Assembly (NCBI GenBank): GCA_037481835.1
Contig: JBBFKW010000001.1
Span: 64,001-128,000 of the forward strand
Source: Desulfosoma sp.
Lineage (GTDB): Bacteria; Desulfobacterota; Syntrophobacteria; Syntrophobacterales; DSM-9756
DNA length: 64,000 bases
Reading direction: 5' to 3'
A program made the position numbers and the translations under genes. The notes beneath the pieces were generated by a model that did not search any database, was not told the origin of the DNA, and was given only the letters and a program-made list of their open reading frames with translations. This document shows, piece by piece, positions 19,008 to 33,533 of the stretch (positions are counted from its first letter, which is position 1; every line of letters starts with the position of its first letter).

Positions 19008-21347
19008 TTACGGTTCCTGCGGGGCCTTGTAGCCACACCCCGGACGGGCACAGGCAACATATTTTTCACCTTTTTTTCCCGTTCTGCCCACCATGGCCGG
19101 CGAGCCGCACTGAGGGCACGTGCGCGCCGTCGGCCGGAACCACAGCACCACGTCGCAGTCGGGATAGCGGGAGCAGCCGTAAAATTTTCGGCCCGTCTTG
19201 GAAAGCCGTTCCACGATTTCCCCGTCGCAGCCTTCCCGGGGACACGGCACCCCCAGGCTCACCGGCCTTGTGTTCTTGCACCGCGGATACGCGCTGCAGG
19301 CGAGGAATTCCCCGTAGCGCCCTTTTTTCAAGACCATGGGACTGCCGCACTTGTCGCATACCTGCCCCGAAGGTTCCTGCTCCACGAGCTGGATCCGGCC
19401 CTTGTCATCCCGGCGGTAGTCGGACGTGAATCCGCATGAGGGCGCATTGCCGCACGCGAGGAAAGGGCCGGTTCGGCTGAACCGAATGTGCAAATCGCCC
19501 CCGCACCGGGGGCAGGAAACGCCCGTCGGGAGTCCCGCCACTTTCAGGTTCAGCATCTTCTTTTGGGCCTCGTTCAACGTTGCGCTGAAACGTTTGTAAA
19601 ATTCTTCCAAAACCGCAAGGTACGGGCATGTGCCGTTTTCCACTTCGTCCAGGCTCTTTTCCATCTTCGCCGTGAATTCCACATCGACGATTTCCGGAAA
19701 ATGGGCCGTGAGGAGATCGTTGATGAGCAGCCCCAGTTCCGTGGGAACGAGCTGCCTTTTACTCTCCTGCACGTATTCCCGATCCACGATGGTGGAAACG
19801 ATGGTCGCGTACGTGCTGGGCCGGCCGATACCGCGCTCTTCCAATTCCTTGATGAGGCTCGCTTCCGAATAGCGCGGCGGAGGCTGGGTGAAGTGCTGCT
19901 TGGGGATGAGCTTGTGAAGATCCAGCACCTGGCCTTCCGTGAGGGCCGGGAGGCGCCCTTCAGCCCCACCGTCTTTTTCGGAGGACTCCTCGTCTTCACT
20001 TTCCGTGTACAGGACCATGAAGCCGGGAAATTCCACGACGGATCCCGTGGCTCGAAAGAGATGGACCGTCCCGCCCTTCTTGTCGGCGTCTTGGGAGGCC
20101 CCCCCGGCGCCGGTCGGGCCGCCTTCGGGAACGGCTTGGATGGTCACCGTCGTCTGGGCGATGGCCGCAGGGCTCATCTGGCAGGCGACGAAACGCTTCC
20201 AGATGAGGCTGTACAGGGCGAGTTCGTCCCGGGGGAGGAATGGCTCCAGGGATTCGGGAGTCCGGCTCACGTCGGTGGGTCGGATGGCCTCGTGGGCGTC
20301 CTGGGCACCGGACTTGGTCTTGTAGACGGCGGCTTTGGGCGGCACGTAAGGCGATCCGAACCTGTGCGCGATGTAGTCCCGAGCGGCCTTGACCGCCTCG
20401 TCGGCAAGGCGCGTGGAGTCGGTGCGCATGTAGGTGATGAGACCCACGGCCCCTTCGTCGCCGATTTCCACGCCTTCGTAGAGGCGCTGGGCCACGCGCA
20501 TGGTTTTCTTGGCCGAAAAGCGCAGCCTGCGGGCGGCATCCTGCTGCAACGTGCTGGTGATGAAAGGAGGCGGCGCGTTTTTCCGGCGCTGCTTGCGCTC
20601 CACGGTAAGCACCCGGAAAAGGTTTCCTTCCAGGGCCTTGAGCACCGCCGCGGTGTGCTCCTCGGAACGCAGATCGCACTTCTTGGAGCCGATGCGCCAC
20701 AGCTTGGCTTCGAAAAGGTCGGCCTTGTCCTTCGTGCGGTCGTCGCGCCGCGGCGAAAGCTGGGCCGTGATGGTCCAGTATTCTTCGGGGACGAAGCGCT
20801 GGATGTCCCGTTCCCGTTCGCAGATGAGCCGCAGGGCCACGGATTGGACACGACCGGCGCTCAGGCCGCGCTTCACCTTTTCCCAGAGGATGGGGGAAAT
20901 GAGGTAGCCGACGAGCCGATCCAGGATGCGCCGCGCCTGCTGGGCGTCGTAGAGGTTCTGGTTCAACCGCCCCGGATTTTGCAAGGCTTCGCGGATGGCT
21001 TTCGGGGTCAGCTCGTAGAACAGCACCCGATACAGGGGCTTGCCGTCGATTTTGAGTTCTTCGGCGATGTGCCAGGCGATGGCCTCCCCTTCCCGATCCG
21101 GGTCCGGGCCCAGGTAGACGGCCTGGGCTTTGGCGGCGGCGTCGCTCAGTTCCTTGAGCACCTTTTTCTTGGTGCGCAGGACCTGGTACTCGGCCTTGAA
21201 CCGGTTTTCCACGTCGATCCCTAGCTTGGCCTTGGGAAGATCCTTGACGTGGCCGACGGAGGCTTTCACGATAAAATCCTTCCCCAGGTATCGGGTGAGC
21301 GTCTTGGCCTTTGTCGGACTTTCCACGATCAGAAGCGATGGCGCCAT
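19008..21347 (-). CDS. topA: DNA topoisomerase I
   Basis: IVESPTKAKT, DPDREGEAI, SAGRVQS, ITYMRTDS, GIGRPSTY, C4 zinc ribbons. Confidence 0.97.
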   Translation of the reverse strand: MAPSLLIVESPTKAKTLTRYLGKDFIVKASVGHVKDLPKAKLGIDVENRFKAEYQVLRTKKKVLKELSDAAAKAQAVYLGPDPDREGEAIAWHIAEELKIDGKPLYRVLFYELTPKAIREALQNPGRLNQNLYDAQQARRILDRLVGYLISPILWEKVKRGLSAGRVQSVALRLICERERDIQRFVPEEYWTITAQLSPRRDDRTKDKADLFEAKLWRIGSKKCDLRSEEHTAAVLKALEGNLFRVLTVERKQRRKNAPPPFITSTLQQDAARRLRFSAKKTMRVAQRLYEGVEIGDEGAVGLITYMRTDSTRLADEAVKAARDYIAHRFGSPYVPPKAAVYKTKSGAQDAHEAIRPTDVSRTPESLEPFLPRDELALYSLIWKRFVACQMSPAAIAQTTVTIQAVPEGGPTGAGGASQDADKKGGTVHLFRATGSVVEFPGFMVLYTESEDEESSEKDGGAEGRLPALTEGQVLDLHKLIPKQHFTQPPPRYSEASLIKELEERGIGRPSTYATIVSTIVDREYVQESKRQLVPTELGLLINDLLTAHFPEIVDVEFTAKMEKSLDEVENGTCPYLAVLEEFYKRFSATLNEAQKKMLNLKVAGLPTGVSCPRCGGDLHIRFSRTGPFLACGNAPSCGFTSDYRRDDKGRIQLVEQEPSGQVCDKCGSPMVLKKGRYGEFLACSAYPRCKNTRPVSLGVPCPREGCDGEIVERLSKTGRKFYGCSRYPDCDVVLWFRPTARTCPQCGSPAMVGRTGKKGEKYVACARPGCGYKAPQEP

Positions 21348-21440
21348 TCTTCCTCCGCTGATGTGCCGTCATTTCTTCATTCGGCAGATCCCATGAAGTT
21401 CTGAAATGAATTCGCCCGCCCTCCGGGCGGCCCCGTCATG

Positions 21441-22589
21441 CTACGAAAGCCGCATAAAATACTTGCCGGGCATCTGCCGCACAAGCCCTTTGATTTCCAG
21501 GGCCGTGAGGGCGGCCGTGACCGCAGGGACCGTCAGCCCGCTTTGCGCGCACAGCCGGTCCACGTGGACGGGGTCTTTGCCCAAGAGCCCCAAAACGGTT
21601 TTTTCCACCGGGGAAAGATCATGTTCCATGGGGCTTTTTTCGGGATCGGATCGGCCTGCGCCGGCCGGAGGTGAAGCGGCCGAGGGCGTCCCGCTGGGGC
21701 GGATCATGGGCCTGAGGTGTTCGAGGATATCGTCGGCACTTTCCATGAGAACCGCTCCTTGGCGGAGCAGAAGGTGCGGCCCGAGACTCCGGATATTTCC
21801 GGCCGCTCCGGGGACGGCGAACACCTCCCGGCCCTGTTCCAAGGCGCACCGGGCCGTGATGAGCGACCCGCTCTTGGCGGTGGCCTCAACGACGACCACG
21901 CCGAGGGCCAGGCCGCTGAGAATGCGGTTTCTCTGGGGAAAATGGCCGGCGAGGGGCGGTGTGCCCAGAGGAAATTCGGTCAAAAAACCGCCGTGGGCCA
22001 TGACGGCGGCCCGCAGGTCGGCGTTGGGCCGAGGATACAGGACATCCAGCCCGCAGCCCAAAACCGCCAGCGTGCGCCCGCCGCCTCGGATCGCCCCGCG
22101 ATGGGCGGCGCTGTCGATCCCGAGGGCGAAGCCGCTCACCACGGTGACCCCTCGCCGCGCAAGATCCGCGCACAGCCGTTCCGTAAAGATGAGGCCCATG
22201 GGGGACGCCGACCGGGATCCCACCACGGCAACGGATACGAGATCCCGGGGCTCGGGAGCGCTCGTCACATAGAGGACCGCGGGAGGATCGGCGATGTTTT
22301 TCAAATTGTCGGGATAGTCGGGATCGCCGAGACACACGAGCCCCCAACCCTGGGCACGCAGGTCCCGCCATTCGTCGTCGACGGCTCGGGTGGTTCTCCC
22401 GGCGGCGAGGGCCTCTTGAGCCTCCCGGCGAAGGCCCGGCACCGCGGCCGCCGCTTGGATCCGATCCGCGCACACCGCCTCGGGAGACCCGAAGCGCGTG
22501 ATGAGCTTCAGGAGGGAGACATTGCCCAGCCCGGGCGTGAGTTTCAAAGTGAGCCACGCTCGGGTGTTTTCGTCCAGCTCGGTTCGCAC
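21441..22589 (-). CDS. dprA: DNA processing protein DprA
   Basis: AVVGSR, VSGFALGIDSAAH, FPQRNRI, SGSLITA; start set at GTG 22589 (GGAAGG SD) because the longer ORF runs through a REP. Confidence 0.93.
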   Translation of the reverse strand: MRTELDENTRAWLTLKLTPGLGNVSLLKLITRFGSPEAVCADRIQAAAAVPGLRREAQEALAAGRTTRAVDDEWRDLRAQGWGLVCLGDPDYPDNLKNIADPPAVLYVTSAPEPRDLVSVAVVGSRSASPMGLIFTERLCADLARRGVTVVSGFALGIDSAAHRGAIRGGGRTLAVLGCGLDVLYPRPNADLRAAVMAHGGFLTEFPLGTPPLAGHFPQRNRILSGLALGVVVVEATAKSGSLITARCALEQGREVFAVPGAAGNIRSLGPHLLLRQGAVLMESADDILEHLRPMIRPSGTPSAASPPAGAGRSDPEKSPMEHDLSPVEKTVLGLLGKDPVHVDRLCAQSGLTVPAVTAALTALEIKGLVRQMPGKYFMRLS

Positions 22590-22726
22590 GGCCTTCCCGT
22601 CCTTGGGCCTTCCCCCGCTCCGGCGCCCATCCCCGAGGCCGCCTTGGGGCGTCTCGCCGTTCGTGCGGGTCGGTGCCATGGCCCCGGGATGTTGGGGTGC
22701 GCTGCGCGCCGTTGGCTCGGCCCCGG

Positions 22727-22758
22727 TGTTGGGGTTCGCTGCGCTCACCCCAACCTAC
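22727..22758 (-). repeat. GTAG-type REP, single copy (degenerate partial copy at ~22690)
   Basis: Exact reverse complement of the 32-bp REP at 4065-4096. Confidence 0.85.
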
Positions 22759-22867
22759 ATCGTGGCAGGGCCTTCCTCAAGTCCCCCATGAGCCGCCCGC
22801 CCCGCAAAATTTTCTCAAGGATCCGCCCCCTCCTGCCGATCCTTAAAGTGAACGCTTCAGAACGTCG

Positions 22868-22957
22868 CGTTTCCGAAAGGGCAAACCCGCCGTGAGGCGG
22901 GGGCGCAAAGCCACGGGTCCCGGAACACGCCGGGATAGCCGGGCTGCCGAAGAAACG
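22868..22957 (+). promoter_or_regulatory. c-di-GMP-I (GEMM-I) riboswitch
   Basis: GGGCAAACCCGCC-GTGA-GGCGGGGGCGCAAAGCCACGGGTCC...GATAGCCGGGCTGCCGA matches the GEMM-I consensus with a GNRA tetraloop; lies in the 5' UTR of the S8 peptidase. Confidence 0.9.
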
Positions 22958-23042
22958 GGACCATTTCCTTCCATCCTCGGAAGTCAGTCCCTCCCGTTTC
23001 TTCCCCCTTTCCTTACCGAGCACGGTTTCGAGGAGGTGTATC

Positions 23043-24941
23043 ATGTCGGGAGGGAGACGTCCGTCCCAAGGCGCTCGTGCGTCCTTTGCGCGCCGCATCC
23101 GCTGCATCCTGGATTTTTCTTGGAGAAGGCCCGCTCTGGCCTTCGCCCTCATCGTCTTTTCCACCCTTTTGGGGCCCCCAGGCTGGGCCGCTCCGGCCGG
23201 CCTGAAGATTTCCCCCGGCTTTTCCGCGCTGCCCAACGTCCGCGCATCCCTCTCGGCCCCGGCGGCGCAGAGCACGGGACGATTGCTGGTGCGGCCTCGG
23301 GCCGACGTGAGCGAAGAAGCACTGGATCGGATCTTTTCCGCCGAAGGGGTGCGGCGCCTCGCTTCCTTGCGCCGAAGCGGCATGCACGTGGTGTCGGTGC
23401 CCCCCCACCTGGAGGCGGCGGTCGCCCGGGCCCTGTCCCTGCATTCGGAAATCGCCTACGCCGAACCCGACGCCCTGGTGGCTCCCCAAGCCGCTGTCCC
23501 CAATGACCCCTTGTATCCCTATCAGTGGCATCTGCCGGTGATGGAAGTCCCCACGGCGTGGGATTACGGCACGGGGGAATCCGTCGTGGTGGCCGTTTTG
23601 GACACGGGCGTGGACGGCACCCACCCGGATCTCGCGGCGTCCCTGGTCCCCGGCTGGAACGTCTACGACGGCACCGCCGACACCTCCGACGTCTACGGGC
23701 ATGGAACCGAGGTGGCCGGCGTCATCGCGGCGGCGGCCGGAAACGGCGTGGGAAGCGCCGGCATCGCCCCGGGAGCGCTCATCATGCCCGTGCGGATCAG
23801 TCGCCCGGACGGGTTGGCCTATCTCAGCACCATCGCCGAAGGCCTCGTGTGGGCGGCCGATCACGGGGCTCGCGTGGCCAACGTGAGCTACATGGTGAGC
23901 GGGAGCGCGGCGGTGTCCGAGGCGGCCTGGTATTTCCGGCGCAAGGGCGGCTTGGTTTTCGCGTCGGCGGGAAACACGGGAACGTACGAATCCTTGAATC
24001 CCAACCCGGCCATCATCGATGTGGCGGCCACGACCCCCGGGGACGCCCGTGCGGACTGGTCCAGCTACGGCACCTACGTGGACCTGGCGGCGCCCGGGGA
24101 AAATATCGTGACGACGACCCGGGGAGGCGGCTACGCCGCGGTTTCCGGGACGTCCTTTTCCGCTCCGGCCGCCGCGGCCGCCGCGGCCTTGCTCTTTTCC
24201 GCCAATCCGTCGCTTTCCGCCGACCAGGCGGAAGGGCTCCTGAAAGGCACCGCGCTGGACATGGGCATTCCCGGGCCGGATCCCTATTACGGTTTCGGGC
24301 GCCTCCAGGCGGCCCACGCCGTTGTCGCCGCGCGGGAAACCCCAAGCCAGGACGCCCAGCCTCCCCGGGTGGCCGTGACATGGCAGTTCCTGGACGGCGA
24401 AGTGGGCCAAGCCCTGCTGGTCGGCGTGCAGGCGGAAGACGACGTCATCGTCTCCCGCGTGGCCCTCTACGCCAACGGGGCCCTGGTGGGCGAAGCGCCC
24501 CTGCCCCTTTATGTGTTCCTCCTGGATGCAACCGTATTCGGCCAAGGGCCCCTGACCTTGACGGCCAAAGCGTGGGACGCGGCAGGCCATGAAGCCGGCT
24601 CCGAACCCGTCACCGTGATGCTGGCACATCACGCCGAGCCCCTGGCCGCGCCGGCTCCCGGGGTGATCATCACCGCTCCGGCCGGCGGCGCCCAGGTCTC
24701 CGGCAAAGCCCTCATCACCATGGAGGCGGCCCCGAACACGCAGATCGTGGGCATCCAGTGCATCGTGGACGGCGAACTCAAAGCCACCGTGATCGGGCCG
24801 AGCCTGCGCTACCCCTGGGATACGTCCAAGGCGGCCGCGGGCCCCCATGACATCACGGCGGTGGCCCTGGATTCGGCGGGCAAGGTGCGTCGCACCACCA
24901 TCACGGTCTTCACGGAAGGAAACCCCGATGGGAAACCATAG
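23043..24941 (+). CDS. Secreted S8 (subtilisin-like) serine peptidase with C-terminal Ig-like domains
   Basis: Catalytic motifs DTG, HGT and GTSFSAP; prodomain; two Ig-like repeats (LTAKAWDAAG, ITAVALDSAG). Confidence 0.92.
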   Translation: MSGGRRPSQGARASFARRIRCILDFSWRRPALAFALIVFSTLLGPPGWAAPAGLKISPGFSALPNVRASLSAPAAQSTGRLLVRPRADVSEEALDRIFSAEGVRRLASLRRSGMHVVSVPPHLEAAVARALSLHSEIAYAEPDALVAPQAAVPNDPLYPYQWHLPVMEVPTAWDYGTGESVVVAVLDTGVDGTHPDLAASLVPGWNVYDGTADTSDVYGHGTEVAGVIAAAAGNGVGSAGIAPGALIMPVRISRPDGLAYLSTIAEGLVWAADHGARVANVSYMVSGSAAVSEAAWYFRRKGGLVFASAGNTGTYESLNPNPAIIDVAATTPGDARADWSSYGTYVDLAAPGENIVTTTRGGGYAAVSGTSFSAPAAAAAAALLFSANPSLSADQAEGLLKGTALDMGIPGPDPYYGFGRLQAAHAVVAARETPSQDAQPPRVAVTWQFLDGEVGQALLVGVQAEDDVIVSRVALYANGALVGEAPLPLYVFLLDATVFGQGPLTLTAKAWDAAGHEAGSEPVTVMLAHHAEPLAAPAPGVIITAPAGGAQVSGKALITMEAAPNTQIVGIQCIVDGELKATVIGPSLRYPWDTSKAAAGPHDITAVALDSAGKVRRTTITVFTEGNPDGKP

Positions 24942-25046
24942 GCGGCGGCGAAGGGGTTCGCCGGGCGGGAAGGAGGGCGGCGCCGAGGGCGCGGGGAGCG
25001 GCAAAGCCCTCGGCGGCCCCTGGGATCTCAAGGAGGCGGGAAAAGC

Positions 25047-25664
25047 TTAGGGCTGCCCGTGCGGGCCGTACATGCCCAATCCCGGTCCCACGGGACTCTT
25101 GTACAGGAGGCCGTGAGCGCCCTGGGCCGGATCGTTATAGACTTCCTGGATGATCGCAAAATCTCCCCAAATTTGCCGGCCGATTTCGGTTCCGTCGGCA
25201 CTAAGCCAGGTGCCGTTTTCGAGAACGGCATCGGAAGGGACGGCGACGATCTTGACAAAATAGGTCCACTTGCGGAGTTTTCCATTCACGTCCACCCAGC
25301 CGGATTGATGATTGGTCAGCCACGCCCCGGACCCCTTGTAGGAATCGTAGCCGTAATGGCGATCCAACAAGCCGTCGCCGTCGCAATCCTTGTTGCTGAG
25401 CCACGCGTCGTTCCATTTCATGATGAGCTCGATATCTTTGTAGGGTTGGCACCACGACGCATCAAAATAAGCGTCGCAATAGGTTCCGTTGAACATGTGG
25501 GCCTGGTAATTGTAGCCCCAGTCGTCGAAGCCCACCGTGACGAGACTTCCATCGTCGGCATACAAGGTCCCGTCTTGGATGGTGGTGCATTTCTGGGCCT
25601 GAGCCAGGCCCGCCAATCCCACGAGGACTCCCAGCGCCAAAGCCGCCATGAACTTTCTTTTCAT
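25047..25664 (-). CDS. Secreted hypothetical protein
   Basis: Signal peptide ending AQA, AAGGAG SD, DCDGDGLLD Ca-binding-like motif. Confidence 0.75.
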   Translation of the reverse strand: MKRKFMAALALGVLVGLAGLAQAQKCTTIQDGTLYADDGSLVTVGFDDWGYNYQAHMFNGTYCDAYFDASWCQPYKDIELIMKWNDAWLSNKDCDGDGLLDRHYGYDSYKGSGAWLTNHQSGWVDVNGKLRKWTYFVKIVAVPSDAVLENGTWLSADGTEIGRQIWGDFAIIQEVYNDPAQGAHGLLYKSPVGPGLGMYGPHGQP

Positions 25665-25848
25665 CGCTTTCTCCTTCTTGGTGGTGTGGCCGATCGGATG
25701 GTTCGGTGCGAAAAATCCGGCGTGAGTTTTCGTCTGCCCCGTGCCTGTGCCTCACCTCCTTTCCCCGAATTCGTTTGGGACGCACTCGAAGGGTTCCATC
25801 GGCAGGGCCCGCACCAAACTTGAAGGATTTTTTCAACGCGGATTCTTC

Positions 25849-25905
25849 CTCCGCGCCTTGGTGTGAGATTTTTTTTCTCACGCCAAGGCGCAAAGGCGCA
25901 AAGAG
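25849..25905. repeat. CGCAAAGG-family inverted-repeat hairpin downstream of the GxxExxY gene
   Basis: cgccttggtgtgaga (25854-25868) pairs with tctcacgccaaggcg; right arm tctcacgccaaggcgcaaaggcgcaaagag at 25876-25905. Confidence 0.85.
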
Positions 25906-25935
25906 GCCAAGAGAAAATCGCTTTCGCGCGAAAAC

Positions 25936-26328
25936 CTAACTCTCCAGGCGGTTCACCACCCGGAAAATTCCGTCTTTCAGGAGCACCGCCCCGAAGTTGA
26001 TGAGAAGTCCCAGGCGCAGGTCCGCCAGCCGAAGGTAGGTGAGCAGCTGCTTGTGGTGGACCGGCTGGACCGTCTCCACCGATTTCAGCTCCACGATCAC
26101 CTTCTGTTCCACCACCAGGTCGGCTCGAAAGGCGTCAGCAAGCACCAGCTCGTCGTAGCGGATGGCGATGGGCACCTCACTTTGGACGGAAAGCCCGCGC
26201 TTTTTGAGCTCATGGGCCAAGACGGCCTGGTAGACCGATTCCAAAAGGCCGGGGCCCAAAGCTCGGTGCACCTGCAGCGCGGCATCCACCACCACTTTGG
26301 CGATGTCGTTTTCGTGAAGACCCCTCAT
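25936..26328 (-). CDS. GxxExxY protein (PD-(D/E)XK-like nuclease fold)
   Basis: 130 aa; LGPGLLESVY, RADLVVE...VELKS, QLLTYL, GLLINF. Confidence 0.92.
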   Translation of the reverse strand: MRGLHENDIAKVVVDAALQVHRALGPGLLESVYQAVLAHELKKRGLSVQSEVPIAIRYDELVLADAFRADLVVEQKVIVELKSVETVQPVHHKQLLTYLRLADLRLGLLINFGAVLLKDGIFRVVNRLES

Positions 26329-26343
26329 CCCCCAATTCCTTTC

Positions 26344-26408
26344 CTTTGCGCCTTTGCGCCTTTGCGTGAGATCTTATTTCTCACGCCAAGGCGCAAAGGC
26401 GCAAAGAG
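26344..26408. repeat. CGCAAAGG-family 28-bp hairpin upstream of the GxxExxY gene
   Basis: Arms 26344-26371 and 26379-26406 are reverse complements with one mismatch; 26377-26408 is identical to 25874-25905. Confidence 0.9.
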
Positions 26409-26473
26409 AAAAACTCTTCAGGCGGTTCACCTCCTTCATGGCGTGACCGTCCCCGCGCCTCCGCGTGACCCCT

Positions 26474-27250
26474 TCAATGATCCGGGGAGGCGGCGCACAG
26501 GAGGATCTCCCTCAAGCTTCGGGAAATCCACAGCATCTTGGGGTTATCGGCGGGAAGCTTCCCCCGAAGGGCGTAGACGGCCCCTTCGGCCAGGCTCCCC
26601 CAGAGCTTGAGCATTTCGTTGTAGAGGATTTTTCGGTTTCGGAAAACGTAGGCGGGAACGGACGGGGACCCGTCGGTCACGGCATGGAGCGCGATGTCCA
26701 CGCCGGATCCCCAGGTGAGGGCTTTCAGCAGGAGGTAGGAGCGCGGGGCGTGGTAGGCGGAGGTCACCAGGATGACGCGCTTCAGGCCGTGATCCCGGAT
26801 GATCTCCCGGCAGAGGAGGGCGTTTTCGAAGGTGGTTCGGGCCCGGGGTTCGGGAAGAACCGCATCGGGCGGAAGGGGGCCGAATCTTTGGGCGTAAGCG
26901 CTAAGCTGCGCCGGGAGGGCGGGAGAAACGGCGATCTTCGGGGCGGCGCCGCTTCGAACGAGATCCCAGCCCGCTTGGATCCTCTTGGCGGCCCCGGCGA
27001 AAACGACCACGGCATCGGCCTTCCCGGGGACGTTCCCGATCCCGAGAAGGCTGACAAAGAGCGCCCCTTCCAGGGCGAAAAGCAGGGCGAGAATCCCGAG
27101 AAGCCGCCCGGCGGACAAAACCCCCGCCCGAAAAGCCCCGCCGCCTCTCTTCCTCTCACCCCAAATGAAGAGCCCCTCCTTTGCGCCTTGGCGTCTTTGC
27201 GCGAGGCCTTTTTTCTCCCGCCAAGCCGCCAAGCACGCCAAGAAAAGCAT
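26474..27250 (-). CDS. YdcF/ElyC/SanA family (DUF218) protein
   Basis: ADAVVVFAG, ARTTFENA, LVTSAYHAPR, E...K motifs; start uncertain because the N-terminus is repeat-derived. Confidence 0.8.
   Translation of the reverse strand: MLFLACLAAWREKKGLAQRRQGAKEGLFIWGERKRGGGAFRAGVLSAGRLLGILALLFALEGALFVSLLGIGNVPGKADAVVVFAGAAKRIQAGWDLVRSGAAPKIAVSPALPAQLSAYAQRFGPLPPDAVLPEPRARTTFENALLCREIIRDHGLKRVILVTSAYHAPRSYLLLKALTWGSGVDIALHAVTDGSPSVPAYVFRNRKILYNEMLKLWGSLAEGAVYALRGKLPADNPKMLWISRSLREILLCAASPDH
27179..27242. repeat. CGCAAAG/CGCCAAG-family repeat pair
   Basis: ctttgcgccttggcgtctttgcgcgaggcc (27179-27208, identical to 27438-27467) facing ctcccgccaagccgccaagcacgccaag (27215-27242). Confidence 0.85.
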
Positions 27251-27286
27251 TTTTTGTACTGCTGATCATCCCTGCGCGAACCCTTT

Positions 27287-28582
27287 CTACGCCGCCGCCT
27301 GAAAGCACCCGCGCACAATCCCGATGACCCGCTCCAAGTCGCCGGAGGTCATGGCCGTGCCGCTGGGCAAACAGAGTCCCCGCTCGAAGAGCCCCTCGGC
27401 CACCTCTCCCCTCACGACCCTGCAGGAATGGCCACCTCTTTGCGCCTTGGCGTCTTTGCGCGAGGCCCCAAAAACGGGTTGACAATGCATGGGCTTCCAC
27501 ACAGGCCGGGATTCGATGTTTTCTTTTTCCAGGGCGATTCGGATCTCTTCCCTGCTCACTCCGGCCCTTTCGGGATCCACGGTCATCACGGTGAGCCACC
27601 GGTTGCTGCGGCTCCAGTCGGGTTCCGGCATGAAGGTGATTCCCGGAAGATCGGACAGGGCTTCGCGGTACAAGTCGAAAATTTCCCGTCTCCGGCGCAC
27701 GCGCTCGTCCAGCACCCGTATCTGCCCGCGCCCGATGGCCGCCACGATGTTGCTCATGCGGTAGTTGTACCCGATGGTGCTGTGTTCGTAGTGAGGCGCC
27801 GGATCCCGCGCCTGTTGGCTCAGAAAGCGTGCGTATTCGATGAGTTCCGGGTCGTCGCTTGCGAGCATCCCGCCTCCCGAGGTGGTGATGATCTTATTCC
27901 CGTTGAAGGAAAAGACCGCCGCCTTCGCCCCCTTCCCGGCATGCATCCAGTCTGTGTGTCGCCTCAAGCCGCCAAGCCCGCCAAGTGAATTCTTCTCGAT
28001 TTGACCTTCACCCTTGGCGCCTTGGCGCCTTTGCGCGAGGTAATAGGCGCCCACGGCCTCGGCGGCATCCACCACCACCGGCACACCGTAGCGGTCGCAG
28101 ATCTCCAGGATCCGCGGCATGTTGCAGCACTGGCCGTAGAGGTCCGTCGGCACCACGGCCTTGGGAAGTTTCCCCGCCCGAGCGCAGCGCTCCAGTTCTT
28201 CTTCCAGAAGGTCCGGATCCATATTCCAGCTTTCCCGATCCGAATCGATAAAGACCGGCACGGCCCCCTGAAAGACGATGGGCGTCACGCTCCCGATGAA
28301 GGTGAGGGTTGAGGCAAAGACCTCGTCGCCCGGGCCCACCCCCAGGCACCGCAGGGCCAAATGCATGGCGGCGGTCCCGCTTGAGACCGCCGCGCACTGG
28401 CCGATTCCCGTATATTCGGCGAATTCGCGCTCAAAGGCGTCCACCATGGGCCCCAGCGGGGCGATGTAGTTGCTCTCGAAGGCCTCCTTTACGAACCGCA
28501 GCTCCTCTCCCCCCATGTGGGGAGGCGACAAAAAGAGCCGCGGCCATACCTTTTGATTTGAATTGGCATCAAATTTCTTCAC
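27287..28582 (-). CDS. DegT/DnrJ family sugar aminotransferase (PglE/EpsN-like) with two repeat-derived in-frame insertions
   Basis: LSPPHM, SSGTAAMHL, DAAE, SFNGNKIITTSGGG, GYNYRMSN, GLCLPSG. Confidence 0.92.
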   Translation of the reverse strand: MKKFDANSNQKVWPRLFLSPPHMGGEELRFVKEAFESNYIAPLGPMVDAFEREFAEYTGIGQCAAVSSGTAAMHLALRCLGVGPGDEVFASTLTFIGSVTPIVFQGAVPVFIDSDRESWNMDPDLLEEELERCARAGKLPKAVVPTDLYGQCCNMPRILEICDRYGVPVVVDAAEAVGAYYLAQRRQGAKGEGQIEKNSLGGLGGLRRHTDWMHAGKGAKAAVFSFNGNKIITTSGGGMLASDDPELIEYARFLSQQARDPAPHYEHSTIGYNYRMSNIVAAIGRGQIRVLDERVRRRREIFDLYREALSDLPGITFMPEPDWSRSNRWLTVMTVDPERAGVSREEIRIALEKENIESRPVWKPMHCQPVFGASRKDAKAQRGGHSCRVVRGEVAEGLFERGLCLPSGTAMTSGDLERVIGIVRGCFQAAA

Positions 28583-28591
28583 AGGCGATCC

Positions 28592-29107
28592 TTACGATCC
28601 TTGCCCAGCCCCCGGTTCCAAAGGCTTTGTTTTCGCAGGGACTCCCACAGCCACCGCCCCTGGCGGAACGTCGCGTGTCACAAAACTGTGAGCGCCCACC
28701 ACGGCGTTTTCCCCGATGGTCACCCCCGGCATGACGGTGGTATGGCTCCCCACACGGCATCCCTTCTTGAGGACCACCGGCCCGGCCTTGCCGTCTATGG
28801 TGGATACGGAATAAATGGAGCAGTGGGAGCCGATCTGGACTTCGTCCTCGATGGTCACGCCGCACTTGGCGTTGATATAGGTGAAGGCGCCGATGTCCGT
28901 TCTGTACCCAAGCCTGAAATTTTCCGTGTGTTGGACCATCCAGTTATAGACGGTAAGTTTCCCGTCTTCCACCACGGGATAAACCCAGGTGGAAAATCGA
29001 TCCCCCTGGTCATGAGAGGCTCCTGCGGAGGGCGCCGGCGCTCTATGAGGGCACTCGGGGGGGATGGAGATTTCTGGCGGGCACCCCCCCCCATGTTCCG
29101 GATTCAA
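28592..29107 (-). CDS. Hexapeptide-repeat acyltransferase
   Basis: Left-handed beta-helix repeats (VTIEDEVQIGSH, MPGVTIGENAVVGAHS, GVPAK); start uncertain. Confidence 0.8.
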   Translation of the reverse strand: MNPEHGGGCPPEISIPPECPHRAPAPSAGASHDQGDRFSTWVYPVVEDGKLTVYNWMVQHTENFRLGYRTDIGAFTYINAKCGVTIEDEVQIGSHCSIYSVSTIDGKAGPVVLKKGCRVGSHTTVMPGVTIGENAVVGAHSFVTRDVPPGAVAVGVPAKTKPLEPGAGQGS

Positions 29108-29711
29108 TGGATTTGGTTACGCACGCGCCGGCCCCGATGATCACATCGTCTCCGATGGTTAGAGGTTTTTCCCGGGTGCCGTTGATGAAGACGGCCCCCG
29201 TCCCTACATAAACCCGCTTTCCGAAGTGCACCCACCCGGACACATGGACCCCAGGGGCCAGGGTGGTGTAATCGCCCATGATCACGTCGTGGCCGACGGT
29301 GCAGTCCAGATTGATCTGCACATGCCGTCCCAGGGAGATGTTCACGGTGAGGATGGATCCGGCACAAATGATGGTGCCTTCGCCGTACTGGATCCACCGT
29401 GAGCGCTCCACCCGAGGGTGCACCAAAGTGGCGAAGCCCAATCCGGCTGCGGCCGCCTTGGCGGCCAGGGCCTCCCGAGTCCGAGGATTCCCCACCGCCA
29501 CAACGACTTCGGCATCGACGTATTTTGCCGCCGCCTCCTCCAAACCCACCACCGGGATCCCGTTCAGCACTGTGCCCCATCGGCTTTCATCGTCATCGAT
29601 GAAGCAGGCGGGCTCATAAAGGACTGCCTCGTCGCGGCACGATTCCACGAGCCATGCGACTTCACGGGCGAATCCCCCGGCCCCGTAGATGGCGATGCGC
29701 CGGCTCTTCAT
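29043..29711 (-). CDS. PglD/NeuD-family sugar acetyltransferase
   Basis: IYGAGGFAREV, TLVHP, TVGHD, hexapeptide repeats. Confidence 0.88.
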   Translation of the reverse strand: MKSRRIAIYGAGGFAREVAWLVESCRDEAVLYEPACFIDDDESRWGTVLNGIPVVGLEEAAAKYVDAEVVVAVGNPRTREALAAKAAAAGLGFATLVHPRVERSRWIQYGEGTIICAGSILTVNISLGRHVQINLDCTVGHDVIMGDYTTLAPGVHVSGWVHFGKRVYVGTGAVFINGTREKPLTIGDDVIIGAGACVTKSIESGTWGGVPARNLHPPRVPS

Positions 29712-30331
29712 CGTTTCATTCCCCCTGAGTTCCCTAGAAATTCTTCCATGGTCGCCTCCCCCGGCTGACTGATCCCTTCCCTTCGGAGCACCTTGACTAC
29801 CGTCATGAAGAGGATCTTGAGATCCAGCGCCAGGGACCAGTTGTCCACGTACCACACATCCAACTTGAACTTTTCTTCCCAGCTTAGGGCGTTTCGCCCG
29901 TTCACCTGGGCCCAGCCCGTGAGCCCCGGCTTGACCTCGTGCCTTCGCGCCTGCTCGGGCGTGTAGCGGTCGAGATATTGCATCAAGAGCGGACGGGGCC
30001 CGACCATGCTCATGTCGCCCTTCAAGACGTTGTAAAGTTCAGGCAGCTCGTCCAGGCTGGTGCTGCGAAGGAACCGACCAACGGATGTCAGACGCTCCGC
30101 GTCCGGAAGCAACCTCCCGTCGGGCCCCCGGGCATTGTTCATGGTCCGGAACTTGACAATGCGGAAGGGCCTTCCCCCCTTGCCCGGCCGAACCTGCGTG
30201 AAAAAGATCGGGGAGCCTTGGGTGACCCGAATCACCAACGCGATCAGCCACATCAGAGGCGAAACCGCCAAGAACCCGAGCCCCGCAACCGCAAGATCCA
30301 ACAGCCTCTTGTTCAACGCAACGCTCCACAC
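29708..30331 (-). CDS. Undecaprenyl-phosphate sugar phosphotransferase (PglC-like)
   Basis: KRLLD, KFRTM, SLDELPEL, GDMSMVGPRPLL, KPGLTGWAQVNGRN. Confidence 0.92.
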   Translation of the reverse strand: MWSVALNKRLLDLAVAGLGFLAVSPLMWLIALVIRVTQGSPIFFTQVRPGKGGRPFRIVKFRTMNNARGPDGRLLPDAERLTSVGRFLRSTSLDELPELYNVLKGDMSMVGPRPLLMQYLDRYTPEQARRHEVKPGLTGWAQVNGRNALSWEEKFKLDVWYVDNWSLALDLKILFMTVVKVLRREGISQPGEATMEEFLGNSGGMKR

Positions 30332-31489
30332 CTACCCCAGTCCCATCACCTGCATGATGACGGCGTTGACTTTGCGCACGTCGTATTTTTCCTCGGCAAT
30401 TTCGCGGGAACGACGCCCCATTCTCGGGATTAGTGCCGGATTGTCGCAGAAACGGAGCATGGCCTCCGCGAGTTTTTCCACGTTCCTGACAGGCACCAGA
30501 AACCCGTTTTCCCCCCAAATGATGTCTTCGGAGTCTTTGTCCAAGCGTTGCCCGGGGGGCAGGAGCACGGTTTCCCGGCATCCGGGGGCATTGGTCGTGA
30601 TAATGGGCCGTCCCATAGACATGGCTTCCAGGACCGTCCGCGGTGTCCCCTCCCGGTAGGAGGGCAGGACGTAAACGCTGCACGCGGCGAGAGCCGGGCG
30701 AACGTCGTGCAGTTCGCCCAGGTACGTGATCACACCTTCGCGCTGCCATTCGTCAAGTTCCGCCGTGCTGATGCCGGCCGGGTTGGAGTCCCTTGGGCCA
30801 GCCAATGCAAAGTGGGCTTCCGGGTAAAGGGCCCGCACAATCTTTGCCGCCTGCACGTATTCATGCAATCCTTTGTCTCTAAGAAGGCGGCAAATCATTA
30901 GGAAATTCATTTTTCGCGGCAAAGGTGCCCATGCGAAATATCGAACATCGACTCCCGAGCCGTTGATTAAGACACATTGTTTACGGCTCACCAACCTCAG
31001 CCGGCAAAATTCGTTCAGATCGTCTGGATTTTGAAAAAAAACCTGACGGCTTCCTTTGAGGCTCAGGCCGTATAGGGTTTTCGCAGCGAGTCTCGCAAAG
31101 CGTGCCTTTAATCCGTTGTTTTCGCCAAAAGCATAACCCAGCCCGGTAACCATCGAATAACAAGCCCGAACCCTTGCCCATCGCGCAGCCAAGCCTCCCC
31201 AGACAATTGGCTTGATCGTGTAGGTTAAGGCAATATCCGGGCGAATTCTTCGCATGGCTTGATAAAGGGATGCAAAGCTCCGCAGATCTTTCCACGGGTT
31301 CATCCCCGCTCGTACTATCGGAGTCGGGATGAATTCGACTCCCCATCGACCGAGTTCCCGGACCGCATCGCCCTCAGGCTCACCAGCACACGCAAAGACC
31401 TCGTGCCCCAACTCCAGCAGCTCACGGATCAGGGGACCGCGAAAGTTCACCAGCGAGCGCGCAGTGCCTCCGATGACGAAAATCCTCAT
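30332..31489 (-). CDS. GT4 glycosyltransferase (PglA/WbpU-like)
   Basis: SLVNFRG, YTIKP, FQNPDD, GSGVD, PSYREGTPR. Confidence 0.9.
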   Translation of the reverse strand: MRIFVIGGTARSLVNFRGPLIRELLELGHEVFACAGEPEGDAVRELGRWGVEFIPTPIVRAGMNPWKDLRSFASLYQAMRRIRPDIALTYTIKPIVWGGLAARWARVRACYSMVTGLGYAFGENNGLKARFARLAAKTLYGLSLKGSRQVFFQNPDDLNEFCRLRLVSRKQCVLINGSGVDVRYFAWAPLPRKMNFLMICRLLRDKGLHEYVQAAKIVRALYPEAHFALAGPRDSNPAGISTAELDEWQREGVITYLGELHDVRPALAACSVYVLPSYREGTPRTVLEAMSMGRPIITTNAPGCRETVLLPPGQRLDKDSEDIIWGENGFLVPVRNVEKLAEAMLRFCDNPALIPRMGRRSREIAEEKYDVRKVNAVIMQVMGLG

Positions 31490-31562
31490 TTGCCGGTTTC
31501 TTCTGCTCTGTGAGCGGGGTTTCTCTGGAGGATTCTCAATCCGTGGGTAAGGACGCCATTAT

Positions 31563-33533
31563 TCAGTGCCACGCCTCCAGCCAAGCCTCAAACATCAAAA
31601 CATCCCAGAGGTGATATTGCCAGTTGCGCTTCCCCGAAAGGTGCTCCTCCCATTTCTGTCGTATGGGGACCGGGTCAAAAAAACCCTCTCGCTTGAGTCG
31701 AGATTCGCTCAGCAACTCCTCCGCCCAGTCACGAAGAGGGCCACGAAGCCAGTATTCAATAGGTAGGCCAAAGCCCGTTTTGGGGCGTTCCACCAAGGGG
31801 CGAGGAACATGCCGATAGAGAACCTGTCTGAGCAACCACTTGCCTTGCCCGTTACGGATCTTCATGGACATCGGGAGGCTCCAAGCAAATTCAACCACGC
31901 GGTGGTCCAGAAAGGGCGCGCGCGTTTCCAGACTCAAGCTCATGGCCGCCCGATCTACTTTGACCAGAATATCGTCTGGAAGATAGGTGATTGAGTCCAG
32001 ATACATGATCCGCTGTTCGAAATTTAAGTCTTCCAACCACTTCTCGGGGGTTGTTACCGGAGTATCCGGTTCTTCGGCTCCAAGAACGATCCGAGCCGGA
32101 TCATTCCAATGAGAAACAAGGGCGAGGTAGAGAGCCTCAGGTCGATCCGCACCGAATAGACCCGCCAACTTGTGCAATTTATCCCCCGGGTTGTTGTAAT
32201 GCCAGCCGGAGGGCATCATCGGAGCTAACAAGCTAAAAATGCGATTCCATTGGACCGGCGAAATGGACACGAAAGCGCGAGCAAGGATTCTCGGAAGAGC
32301 CTTCGGTGTTCGGGCGAGCAATTCCACTAAACGACCGCCCCAGAAATGACGGTTATAGCCGCCGAAAAGTTCGTCACCGCCATCGCCTGATAGGGCCACC
32401 GTCACATGCCTTCTTGCCAGTTGAGCCACAAGATAGGTGGGAATTTGTGAAGAATCCGAAAACGGTTCATCATAAATTTGGGGGATCCGGGGGATAATAT
32501 CCAGCACTTGGCCGGGGGTCACGTATAGCTCGGTGTGGTCGGTTCTTAGATGTTGTGCCACGATCTTGGCGTGTTCTGCTTCGTTGTACTCCCGCTCGTG
32601 AAACCCGATGGTGAAAGTGCGAACCGGTGTTTGTGCTTGAGCCTGCATGATTGCTACCACGGTCGATGAATCGACGCCGCCCGACAGAAAGGCACCGAGA
32701 GGCACGTCAGCCAGACGCTGGCCGGCAATGCTCGCATGAAGCAGGCGTTCCAGTTCGTCTACCGCTTCGTCTTCACTTCCTTGAAATGGTTTGCTTAAAC
32801 TCTTTTCAATCGCTTCCCGCATGGACCAGTATGTGCGCACTTCTTCTCGGCGAGGTCCTGCCGGCTTGCCATTTTCTGCGCGGAACTGGACAAAACAGCC
32901 CGGTTGCAGCTTACAAATGCCCTCATAAATGCTCCAGGGAGCCGGCACACAGTTGTAACGAAGAAAGAGAGCTAAGGCACGCCGCTCAATGTGAGCCTCA
33001 AACCCAGGATAAGCATGGATCGCCTTGAGTTCGGAAGCGAAAACCAGCGTCCCGTTTATCCACCCGTAGTAAAGTGGTTTTTCGCCCATCCGATCACGGG
33101 CAAGGGTTAGCGTTCGGGCTTTGGTGTCCCAGACGGCAAATGCGAACATCCCAACGGTCTTCTTGAGGGCAGGGACCACGCCCCAGGCATCGAATGCCGC
33201 TAGCAGCGTTTCTGTGTCCGAATGCCCTCGCCATATTGGGGCAGAGCCAGCCCTTCCCAGCTCCGCGCGCAGTTGCAGATGATTGTAGATTTCTCCGTTC
33301 AAGGCGATTACATATCTACCCGATGCAGAAACCATAGGTTGCCGCCCGGCATTCGAAAGATCGAGAATAGAAAGCCGACGGTGAGCTAAAGCAAAACCCG
33401 ATACTGCATCAACCCATACTCCACCATCGTTGGGCCCACGATGGTACAGCTTTTCGGACATACTAGAGCAAATGAGAGATGCTCGATTGGGGTTTATAGG
33501 GTGTTGCTGCCAAAAACCGTTTAACCCGCACAT
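31563..33533 (-). CDS. asnB: Asparagine synthase-like glutamine amidotransferase (sugar amidation, WbpS-like)
   Basis: N-terminal MCG, HRRLSILDL, NGEIYN, RDRMGEKPLY, LSGGVDSS, SGDGGDELFGGY. Confidence 0.92.
   Translation of the reverse strand: MCGLNGFWQQHPINPNRASLICSSMSEKLYHRGPNDGGVWVDAVSGFALAHRRLSILDLSNAGRQPMVSASGRYVIALNGEIYNHLQLRAELGRAGSAPIWRGHSDTETLLAAFDAWGVVPALKKTVGMFAFAVWDTKARTLTLARDRMGEKPLYYGWINGTLVFASELKAIHAYPGFEAHIERRALALFLRYNCVPAPWSIYEGICKLQPGCFVQFRAENGKPAGPRREEVRTYWSMREAIEKSLSKPFQGSEDEAVDELERLLHASIAGQRLADVPLGAFLSGGVDSSTVVAIMQAQAQTPVRTFTIGFHEREYNEAEHAKIVAQHLRTDHTELYVTPGQVLDIIPRIPQIYDEPFSDSSQIPTYLVAQLARRHVTVALSGDGGDELFGGYNRHFWGGRLVELLARTPKALPRILARAFVSISPVQWNRIFSLLAPMMPSGWHYNNPGDKLHKLAGLFGADRPEALYLALVSHWNDPARIVLGAEEPDTPVTTPEKWLEDLNFEQRIMYLDSITYLPDDILVKVDRAAMSLSLETRAPFLDHRVVEFAWSLPMSMKIRNGQGKWLLRQVLYRHVPRPLVERPKTGFGLPIEYWLRGPLRDWAEELLSESRLKREGFFDPVPIRQKWEEHLSGKRNWQYHLWDVLMFEAWLEAWH

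Follow-up and report, generated by a model that had tools for sequence, protein, structure and literature searches.

The window, a 64,000-nt stretch of Desulfosoma sp. DNA (assembly GCA_037481835.1, contig JBBFKW010000001.1, positions 64,001 to 128,000), contains a small GxxExxY gene that codes for a PD-(D/E)XK-like protein and lies between inverted arms built from tandem CGCAAAG-type units. A cassette is defined here as one gene for a PD-(D/E)XK protein of ~125-130 aa together with two inverted arms, each of about three units of 8-10 nt and each ending outwards, in this case, with TCTCAC. The interpretation favoured here, to which we assign a probability of about 0.5, is that the locus is an array of selfish cassettes whose nuclease binds the units of its own arms, cuts, and spreads both the cassette and gene-less derivatives of it. 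Such an element would be a functional analogue of the RAYT/REPIN partnership, in which RAYT is the transposase associated with repetitive extragenic palindromic (REP) sequences. A preliminary description of the locus had proposed that the protein and the CGCAAAG repeats form one REP/RAYT-like system. The enrichment of arms around homologues, the co-divergence of arms and protein, and the co-occurrence of arrays with the gene all speak for such a partnership; the cassette is not itself a member of REP/RAYT, because its protein is PD-(D/E)XK and not Y1 HUH.

Flanking arms are enriched around homologues of the gene, being present at 77 of 126 genes and at none of 805 control windows. The score used is that of the best ungapped inverted repeat found when the 200 nt preceding a gene are compared with the 200 nt following it, and the threshold of at least 16 was set after both distributions were known; a score of 14 is reached by 1 of 600 random control positions. 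Among 41 genomes of the order, 27 have a TIGR04256 match, and this genome is one of the 27. This genome and 40 relatives yielded 49 GxxExxY genes, one of which was left out for a flank that was too short, and gene-spanning inverted repeats of at least 16 were found at 34 of the other 48. The corresponding controls gave 0/600 for random positions in this genome (maximum 15) and 0/58 for windows displaced by 800 nt. A second set, drawn from many phyla, comprised 80 loci that were the best of at least 602 matches to an 11-sequence profile. Two of these had short flanks, and 43 of the remaining 78 reached the threshold, against 0 of 147 displaced windows; this sample is biased, since the profile represents the LGPGLLES subfamily. 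The record titles in the set name Deltaproteobacteria, Planctomycetota, Cyanobacteria, Bacteroidota, Verrucomicrobiota, Acidobacteriota, Chloroflexota and others, and the only gene common to the cassettes examined across phyla is GxxExxY.

The layout is also oriented. At 40 of the 77 arm-bearing loci a purine-rich arm precedes the gene and a pyrimidine-rich arm follows it, the reverse being found at 3; the remaining loci carry additional arms, or complete hairpins on one side or on both. By a parsing that is noisy, 62 arms could be divided into units, with three units in 40, two in 19 and four in 3, and with spacings between units of 8 nt (41), 9 nt (25) and 10 nt (40).

Arrays of the repeat are numerous in genomes with the gene and nearly absent from kin without it. 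They were counted in the 41 genomes of the order with the pattern CRCRRAG N1-2 CRCRRAG N1-2 CRCRRAG, which covers one unit class, and total 1152, compared with 66 gene matches and with 28 for a reversed-pattern control. At least 5 arrays are present in 22 of the 27 genomes with the gene and in 2 of the 14 without it, and 12 of those 14 have at most one. The largest counts among gene-bearing genomes are 286 (G022), 150 (G004) and 123 (G025); the gene matches per gene-bearing genome number 1-6. Arrays exceed genes 10- to 100-fold, so most arrays are gene-less. The association with gene presence has a Mann-Whitney p of 7e-6 and a Fisher p of 5e-5, values for which related genomes are not independent; the contrast is repeated within two families, namely in f1, where G001 and G003 differ from their kin, and in f3, where six genomes differ from twenty. 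Several more unit types coexist in G004.

The assembly that contains the window (G000; 3.63 Mb, 38 contigs, with the window cassette on contig C1) has four GxxExxY genes of three lineages. The unit is CGCAAAG at the genes on C1 and C10, CGCAGAG at the gene on C22, and CACAGAG at the gene on C23. The C10 protein is 97% identical to the window protein and has lost the invariant Y98 (TAC to TCC). The C22 gene (50% identity) is bracketed by TTCACCGCAGAGACGCAGAGGGCTCAGAGGC and its complement, with extra CGCAGAG arrays 2-3 kb away, and the C23 gene (59% identity) has CACAGAG-unit hairpins on either side. The genome thus holds three protein lineages and three unit sequences in one architecture. A search with seven unit types found clean three-unit arrays only of the three resident types; the rows from the four non-resident types were judged by eye to be cross-matches to resident arrays or irregular sequences.

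The dispersal of the CGCAAAG family is wider than first described. The claim that it is limited to ~2.2 kb around the gene is correct for the window, in which CGCAAAGGCGCAAAG with at most 2 mismatches has 12 matches against 0.23 expected (12 being reached by 0/100 shuffles), all of them confined to 25881-28035. It does not extend to the genome. There, an nhmmer profile detects 19 CGCAAAG-family loci in the 3.63 Mb; a gapless hairpin search gave 6 periodic hairpins and missed those with bulges. Eight of the 19 elements are no more than 3.3 kb away from the two cognate genes, a portion amounting to 0.4% of the genome, and 11 are elsewhere, on 9 contigs. Thirteen of the 19 are gene-less hairpins with shared conserved flanks, and 12 of these thirteen are distant from any GxxExxY gene.

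Arms co-vary with the protein phylogeny (Mantel r 0.47, p 0.001, n 74). The similarity of arms declines steadily, from 0.82 at less than 30% protein divergence to 0.57 at more than 60%. Among the best 80 of at least 602 matches, the closest relatives of the window protein share the CTCACGCAAAGGCGCAAAGG arm; the titles of their records name Nostoc, Nodularia, Verrucomicrobiota, Pirellulales and Cytophagia. Protein and arms therefore travel together between phyla.

Gene-less derivatives are found in the window itself, close to the cassette. A hairpin of the CGCAAAG family at 27178..27243, with no strand assigned, consists of arm, loop and arm and lies between the stop codon of a gene for a DegT-family aminotransferase and the DUF218 gene (nhmmer E 1.2e-16). 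The DegT gene (27287..28582, minus strand; PF01041, 6.3e-93) contains two further derivatives, both on the minus strand. One is a mini-element at 27962..28040, made up of left arm, 26 nt and right arm, which is in frame and forms part of a 29-codon (87-nt) in-frame insertion. The other is a 13-codon (39-nt) in-frame insertion, GASRKDAKAQRGG, at 27431..27469, which corresponds to a single CGCAAAG-type arm. The DegT orthologues of G010 and G019 have neither insertion, and the 29-codon insertion is kept in strain variants of runs X3 and X4. The G004 orthologue, from another genus (L156, C308:6000-7520), carries elements of other unit types, GAGTTTTGA/TCAAAACTC and GGCGAGGG, which occupy the same two places as in the window gene, namely the same loop and the site directly after the same QPVF. 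Either the DegT gene is a recurrent landing place or only these loops tolerate inserts. One of the G004 elements is out of frame, so that this DegT gene is perhaps disrupted, or the insert is perhaps taken out somehow. Just downstream are a CGCAAAG arm relic and a GxxExxY gene of the CACAGAT type. As a separate observation, one metagenome contig of run X4 joins 27178 to 27438 with a 30-nt overlap, skipping 259 nt between direct arm copies; this is possibly a deletion variant that has lost the 3' end of DegT, or possibly an assembly path through the repeat, and it is not counted as evidence.

Further gene-less copies are found in relatives. Those of G005 and G008 consist of left arm, ~80-220 nt and right arm with no ORF (open reading frame), have the nested hairpins of GCTGAGACGCC type that belong to the C22-type cassette, and in several cases are orthologous between the two species. 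In G004, a family of long palindromes of 157 nt has 38 left ends and 39 right ends, with inner arms that read TTCACC plus three CACGGAG. Exact flanking direct repeats of 6-10 nt are present at 8 of 14 distinct complete copies of this family and at 0 of 56 displaced controls, and this is direct evidence for the transposition of DNA that bears such arrays.

The anatomy of the window locus was read from an alignment with the 95%-identical C10 paralogue (605 nt). The GxxExxY gene is an intact ORF for 130 aa at 25936..26328 on the minus strand. As in the preliminary description, the upstream hairpin has 28-nt arms with one mismatch (26344-26371 and 26379-26406, 96% complementary, 7-nt loop); 26377-26408 is identical over 32 nt to 25874-25905, the last part of both copies; and a related arm, cccgcgcctccgcgtga, is present at 26452-26468. 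The downstream hairpin, with 21-nt arms at 25848-25868 and 25876-25896 (86%), is real as well. What changes is how the gene is enclosed: it is bracketed by inverted arms, and each hairpin is the right arm of one cassette meeting the left arm of the next. The basic unit is left arm, gene and right arm, the left arm consisting of TCTCAC plus three CGCAAAGG units on the coding strand and the right arm being complementary. The locus comprises three cassettes head to tail, the first with its gene internally deleted, the second intact, and the third truncated.

All parts of the array are on the minus strand. The left arm of the intact cassette, L1 (26344..26371), is purine-rich, reads TCTCAC followed by GCAAAGG CGCAAAGG CGCAAAG on the gene strand, and ends 15 nt ahead of the ATG. 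Its right arm, R1 (25876..25905), begins 30 nt after the stop codon and reads CTCTTTGCG CCTTTGCG CCTTGGC GTGAGA on the gene strand. Upstream, the cassette without a gene is represented by a degenerate left arm, L0 (26452..26468; TCACGCGGAGGCGCGGG on the gene strand), which directly follows the DUF218 stop; by a gene remnant (26412..26439), in which an ATG at 26439-26437 runs straight into a duplicate of the final codons of the gene (26412-26434 and 25938-25960 share 91% identity); and by a right arm, R0 (26379..26406), which pairs with L1 as the upstream hairpin. The third unit is seen as a degenerate left arm, L2 (25848..25868), which pairs with R1 as the downstream hairpin. The order in the orientation of the gene is therefore DUF218 stop, L0, ATG and last-codon copy, R0, 7-nt loop, L1, gene, R1, loop, L2. 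A DUF218 gene lies on one side of the window cassette and an unnamed 205-aa ORF on the other; the neighbourhood is not rRNA. No site emerged from a promoter scan. Inspection by eye led to the rejection of an integron attC reading, as arms lie on both sides of the ORF and no GTTRRRY core was seen; an integrase was not searched for. Concerning the DUF218 neighbour, the first ~40 codons of the listed ORF (26474-27250, minus strand) are the translated 27178-27243 hairpin (LAQRRQGAK...); the true DUF218 start is probably further downstream, and LAQRRQGAK-like peptides may mark mis-called ORFs elsewhere.

The identification of the window protein as a small PD-(D/E)XK-like GxxExxY protein holds. It matches PF13366 (PDDEXK_3) at 6e-42, 143.1 bits against a cut-off of 22, and TIGR04256 (GxxExxY) at 1.4e-42, 144.7 bits against a cut-off of 35. 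A Pfam scan of the protein matched PF13366 alone, so the Y1 HUH domain of RAYT was not seen. An alignment of 27 sequences from this genome and the order has invariant G27, E30, Y33, E40, Y58, D70 and K82, as well as Q94, Y98, N111, F112 and R123, and E80 is conserved in at least 90% of the sequences. With G27/E30/Y33 and D70/E80/K82 conserved in the window protein, its GxxExxY and D...ExK nuclease motifs are intact; D70, E80 and K82 are assigned from the family motif as the putative active site. An AlphaFold2 model (pLDDT, the predicted local distance difference test, of 94.8) has as its closest structures a set of restriction-endonuclease-like domains, namely the BpuSI nuclease domain (Z 8.3), 3ijm (Z 8.2), Cas4 SSO0001 (Z 7.6) and Hjc (~6.3). 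These middling Z values indicate the fold class of the modelled protein and no specific function. Foldseek with the model gave nothing at E <= 0.001, and a GxxExxY profile search of PDB sequences gave no meaningful match (E 0.53). The gene is the sole ORF inside the window cassette; an element-encoded DDE or other known transposase is absent from it.

The history of one cassette could be followed across species. The C22 site, defined by the same two flanking genes in six genomes of the family, holds an intact cassette in G000 and G005 and a decayed one in the other four: G002 has an internal deletion and retains an N-terminal fragment, G001 and G007 have relics, and G003 has ~105 nt with at most a faint arm. 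A copy in G008 has the upstream gene end and arms as at the C22 site. This pattern is one of vertical inheritance with repeated decay, as expected of a selfish gene but not of a gene with a host function. Together with the loss of Y98 in the C10 copy, the decay at the C22 site indicates that the gene is not kept by host selection. No clean empty site was found in relatives: comparison of occupied with empty alleles in contigs and diverged species revealed no empty allele of a cassette. The window locus is not syntenic in three genomes of the same genus, in which the peptidase alone matches (66-69%). Separately, several partial tandem pieces of the C22-type cassette, among them three fragments from the N-terminal part of the gene along with pieces of arm and leader, are found within 4 kb in G002 of the same genus (C1:86149-89889, L058).

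From the co-occurrence of gene and arms we infer that the nuclease binds, cuts and mobilises the arms. In the proposed mechanism, the nuclease would act as a multimer that binds the tandem units in the arms of its own cassette and would cut at or near the arms, and this cutting would promote copying of arm-bounded DNA, that is, of the cassette and of gene-less palindromic derivatives. The units that make up an arm stay alike, as do the left and right arms of one cassette, while lineages differ, which argues for a reader of the units, beyond linkage; since the cassette encodes just one protein, that reader would be the GxxExxY protein.

Several findings weigh against this interpretation. The gene-spanning repeat falls below the threshold at 14/48 and 35/78 of the genes in the two samples, and arrays are present in two genomes without a detectable gene, G021 (15) and G030 (7). 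The co-divergence of protein and arms could arise partly from mere linkage. Residue 10 (A/T) matches unit position 5 (A/G) in 25/25 cases, a link that amounts to 1-3 independent pairs on the tree and is thus only a hint. The arms of gene-bearing copies have no target-site duplication, direct repeats of at least 5 nt being found at 8/77 of them and at 23/308 controls, and four metagenome contig sets showed neither an empty site nor an excision joint of a cassette. No clean element ends are defined by the C1 and C10 copies, the 605 nt that they share takes in the remnant of the neighbouring unit, and the position of a DUF218 fragment in the order differs between the two loci. Another transposase may move the 157-nt family of G004, whose outer terminal repeat of 22 nt was not seen in the surroundings of the gene-bearing cassette L014. 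Finally, we know of no transposon that has a PD-(D/E)XK nuclease as its only protein.

The C10 cassette (L006, C10:5500-10500) is accompanied by an 89-nt DUF218 fragment that is 93% identical to window positions 26813-26901. Relative to the cassette it is on the opposite flank, from which ~1.6 kb of small genes separate it; the duplication therefore did not simply transfer a single unit cleanly.

A broader proposal is put forward tentatively. GxxExxY cassettes may constitute a new class of mobile element, present in most bacterial phyla, whose sole protein is a ~125-aa PD-(D/E)XK nuclease that reads 8-10-nt units and mobilises itself together with gene-less palindromes. Such elements would be the PD-(D/E)XK counterpart of RAYT/REPIN and could settle in frame in genes of essential type.

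The closest parallel is with REP/RAYT. In published accounts, these systems have a small nuclease gene in one or a few copies, flanked by an inverted short palindromic repeat, with dispersed gene-less copies, largely vertical inheritance, and repeat types that are paired with gene lineages (PMC3337134, PMC5581495, 10.1101/2022.05.22.493013). GxxExxY cassettes are alike in having a nuclease gene of low copy number between inverted versions of a dispersed repeat, in gene-less copies that co-occur with the gene in 10-100-fold excess, in largely vertical inheritance, and in the pairing of different repeat types with different gene lineages in one genome. They differ in the protein, which is PD-(D/E)XK whereas RAYT (TnpA-REP) is Y1 HUH, and in the arm, which has three tandem 8-10-nt units where a REP has one stem-loop. 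The outer end is TCAC or TTCACC, unlike the GTAG/CGTC tag named for REP in PMC3733652. The gene-less copies, furthermore, are also found in frame inside genes. Rickettsia palindromic elements are reported to insert within protein-coding genes while keeping the frame, and the insertions in the DegT gene recall this. The cassette shares features with transposon/MITE (miniature inverted-repeat transposable element) pairs, with homing endonucleases and with intervening sequences of rRNA, and it fits none of these.

An explanation that we regard as unlikely is homing. Here, the gene-less palindrome would be the site of a dimeric nuclease, the gene would disrupt that site and be copied into empty palindromes by break repair, and the palindromes would spread by other means. 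The geometry suits this idea, as the ORF lies exactly between the half-sites and the arms abut the start and stop codons. It would also account for the joint divergence of protein and arms, for arrays that far exceed genes, for the lack of a target-site duplication at gene-bearing copies, and for the G004 palindromes with their own outer terminal repeats and duplications. The invasion and later decay at the orthologous C22 site fit the life cycle of a homing endonuclease. I-Ssp6803I, moreover, has a PD-(D/E)XK fold, so homing endonucleases of this class exist. It is described as a homing endonuclease in PMC3384342. Like that type and like free-standing homing genes, the cassette encodes a small nuclease in the middle of a palindromic site. 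Unlike them, its gene is outside any intron or intein, its 'site' is a dispersed repeat, and it matches no solved structure by sequence and only generic folds by structure. No locus was seen that is occupied in one strain while a second strain carries the empty palindrome. Genomes without the gene have almost no arrays, an association that homing does not require if palindromes spread on their own, and the tandem head-to-tail array of the window is left unexplained.

Under another explanation, more doubtful than homing, the arms are the ends or subterminal repeats of an element moved by an unlinked transposase, and GxxExxY is cargo whose own role would lie in another process such as defence, addiction or repair. 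A cargo-type parallel is offered by the mobile insertion cassettes of Bacillus. The 6-10-bp target-site duplications and outer terminal repeats of the G004 family are typical of MITEs of DDE transposons, linkage can yield co-divergence of protein and arms, and to our knowledge no strand-transfer activity has been associated with the PD-(D/E)XK fold alone. As in transposon/MITE pairs, the gene-less derivatives retain the ends and internal hairpins of the gene-bearing unit, and one gene-less family, that of G004, has target-site duplications. In contrast to such pairs, the cassette contains no DDE, serine, tyrosine or HUH transposase, and its gene-bearing copies (77 cassettes) are without target duplication. 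The number of repeat types is a further difficulty: this genome has three unit types, each beside its own protein lineage, and G004 has more, so that each would need its own trans-acting enzyme. In addition, the cassettes examined across phyla have no gene in common other than GxxExxY. There is also no gene-sized spacing among the listed left and right ends of the G004 family, although that assembly, in 380 contigs, may miss insertion sequences.

A device acting at the level of RNA is very improbable. It would have the arms pair in the transcript, so that the gene is excised by RNase III or its translation is controlled, the left arm being Shine-Dalgarno-like. The arms do abut the start and stop codons, and in most loci the left arm is rich in AGG/GAG on the sense strand. 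The layout is also like that of the Coxiella intervening sequence, whose ORF-bearing form in 23S rRNA is regarded as selfish in PMC4990558. The intervening sequences of 23S rRNA in Coxiella and Leptospira, which carry an ORF for the S23p four-helix bundle, likewise enclose a small ORF between complementary arms. The cassette differs from them in its protein family, and no cassette was seen in rRNA; TIGR02436 had no match in this genome. The 77 arm pairs have 312 mismatched positions, of which 62 are G-T and 88 are A-C. G-U-compatible mismatches are thus not in excess, and there is no sign of selection on a stem in the sense RNA. An Rfam scan of window positions 20000-32000 and nine other loci found, for the hairpins, only sub-threshold matches to miRNA precursors, that is, no family beyond chance hairpin matches; the one real riboswitch is elsewhere. 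Gene-less copies spread as DNA with target duplications, and these together with the wobble result favour a role at the level of DNA.

Coincidence, that is, an ordinary genome-wide REP-like repeat or a terminator beside a small gene in a variable polysaccharide locus, could draw on the 11 of 19 CGCAAAG elements distant from any GxxExxY gene and on other 8-nt-period arrays (GGTCATTA) that occur without the gene, but it is contradicted by the control windows (score reached by 77/126 genes and 0/805 windows), by the array counts, and by the match between repeat type and resident gene type, and a terminator scan found 3 sites against a shuffle mean of 2.9, which is no excess.

GxxExxY/PDDEXK_3 is a large and widespread family without an assigned function. 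A 2012 survey of PD-(D/E)XK proteins gives that function as 'Unknown' (PMC3424549). The literature found under the family's names, supplements being outside the scope of the search, describes no functional study and no association with a repeat. If the nuclease acts on its own arms, the family would gain a function, and the dispersed tandem-unit palindromes, which in the relatives covered here reach 286 arrays in a single genome, would gain an origin. There would then be a second, independent partnership of a nuclease with a repeat beside REP/RAYT, and odd in-frame insertions and spurious annotated ORFs, with peptides such as LAQRRQGAK, would be accounted for. These small nucleases, whose specificity seems to vary with a readable repeat, could also serve as programmable binders.

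Other repeats are present in the genome. A ~35-nt repeat at window positions 22725-22760 has ~180 near-identical copies over most contigs and represents a separate, far commoner REP-like family; some CGCAAAG hairpins adjoin its copies. Other 8-nt-period arrays, of the type GGTCATTA/TAATGACC, are located at C6:162262-163819, C11:98886-98962 and C18:34202-34270, with one such hairpin between prfA and prmC. These form an orphan array type, with no nearby GxxExxY gene and no cognate gene in the genome. The riboswitch mentioned above is a c-di-GMP-I-GGC aptamer at window positions 22871-22952 on the plus strand (73 bits against a gathering score of 59), and it is located just 5' of the S8 subtilase gene at 23043-24941.

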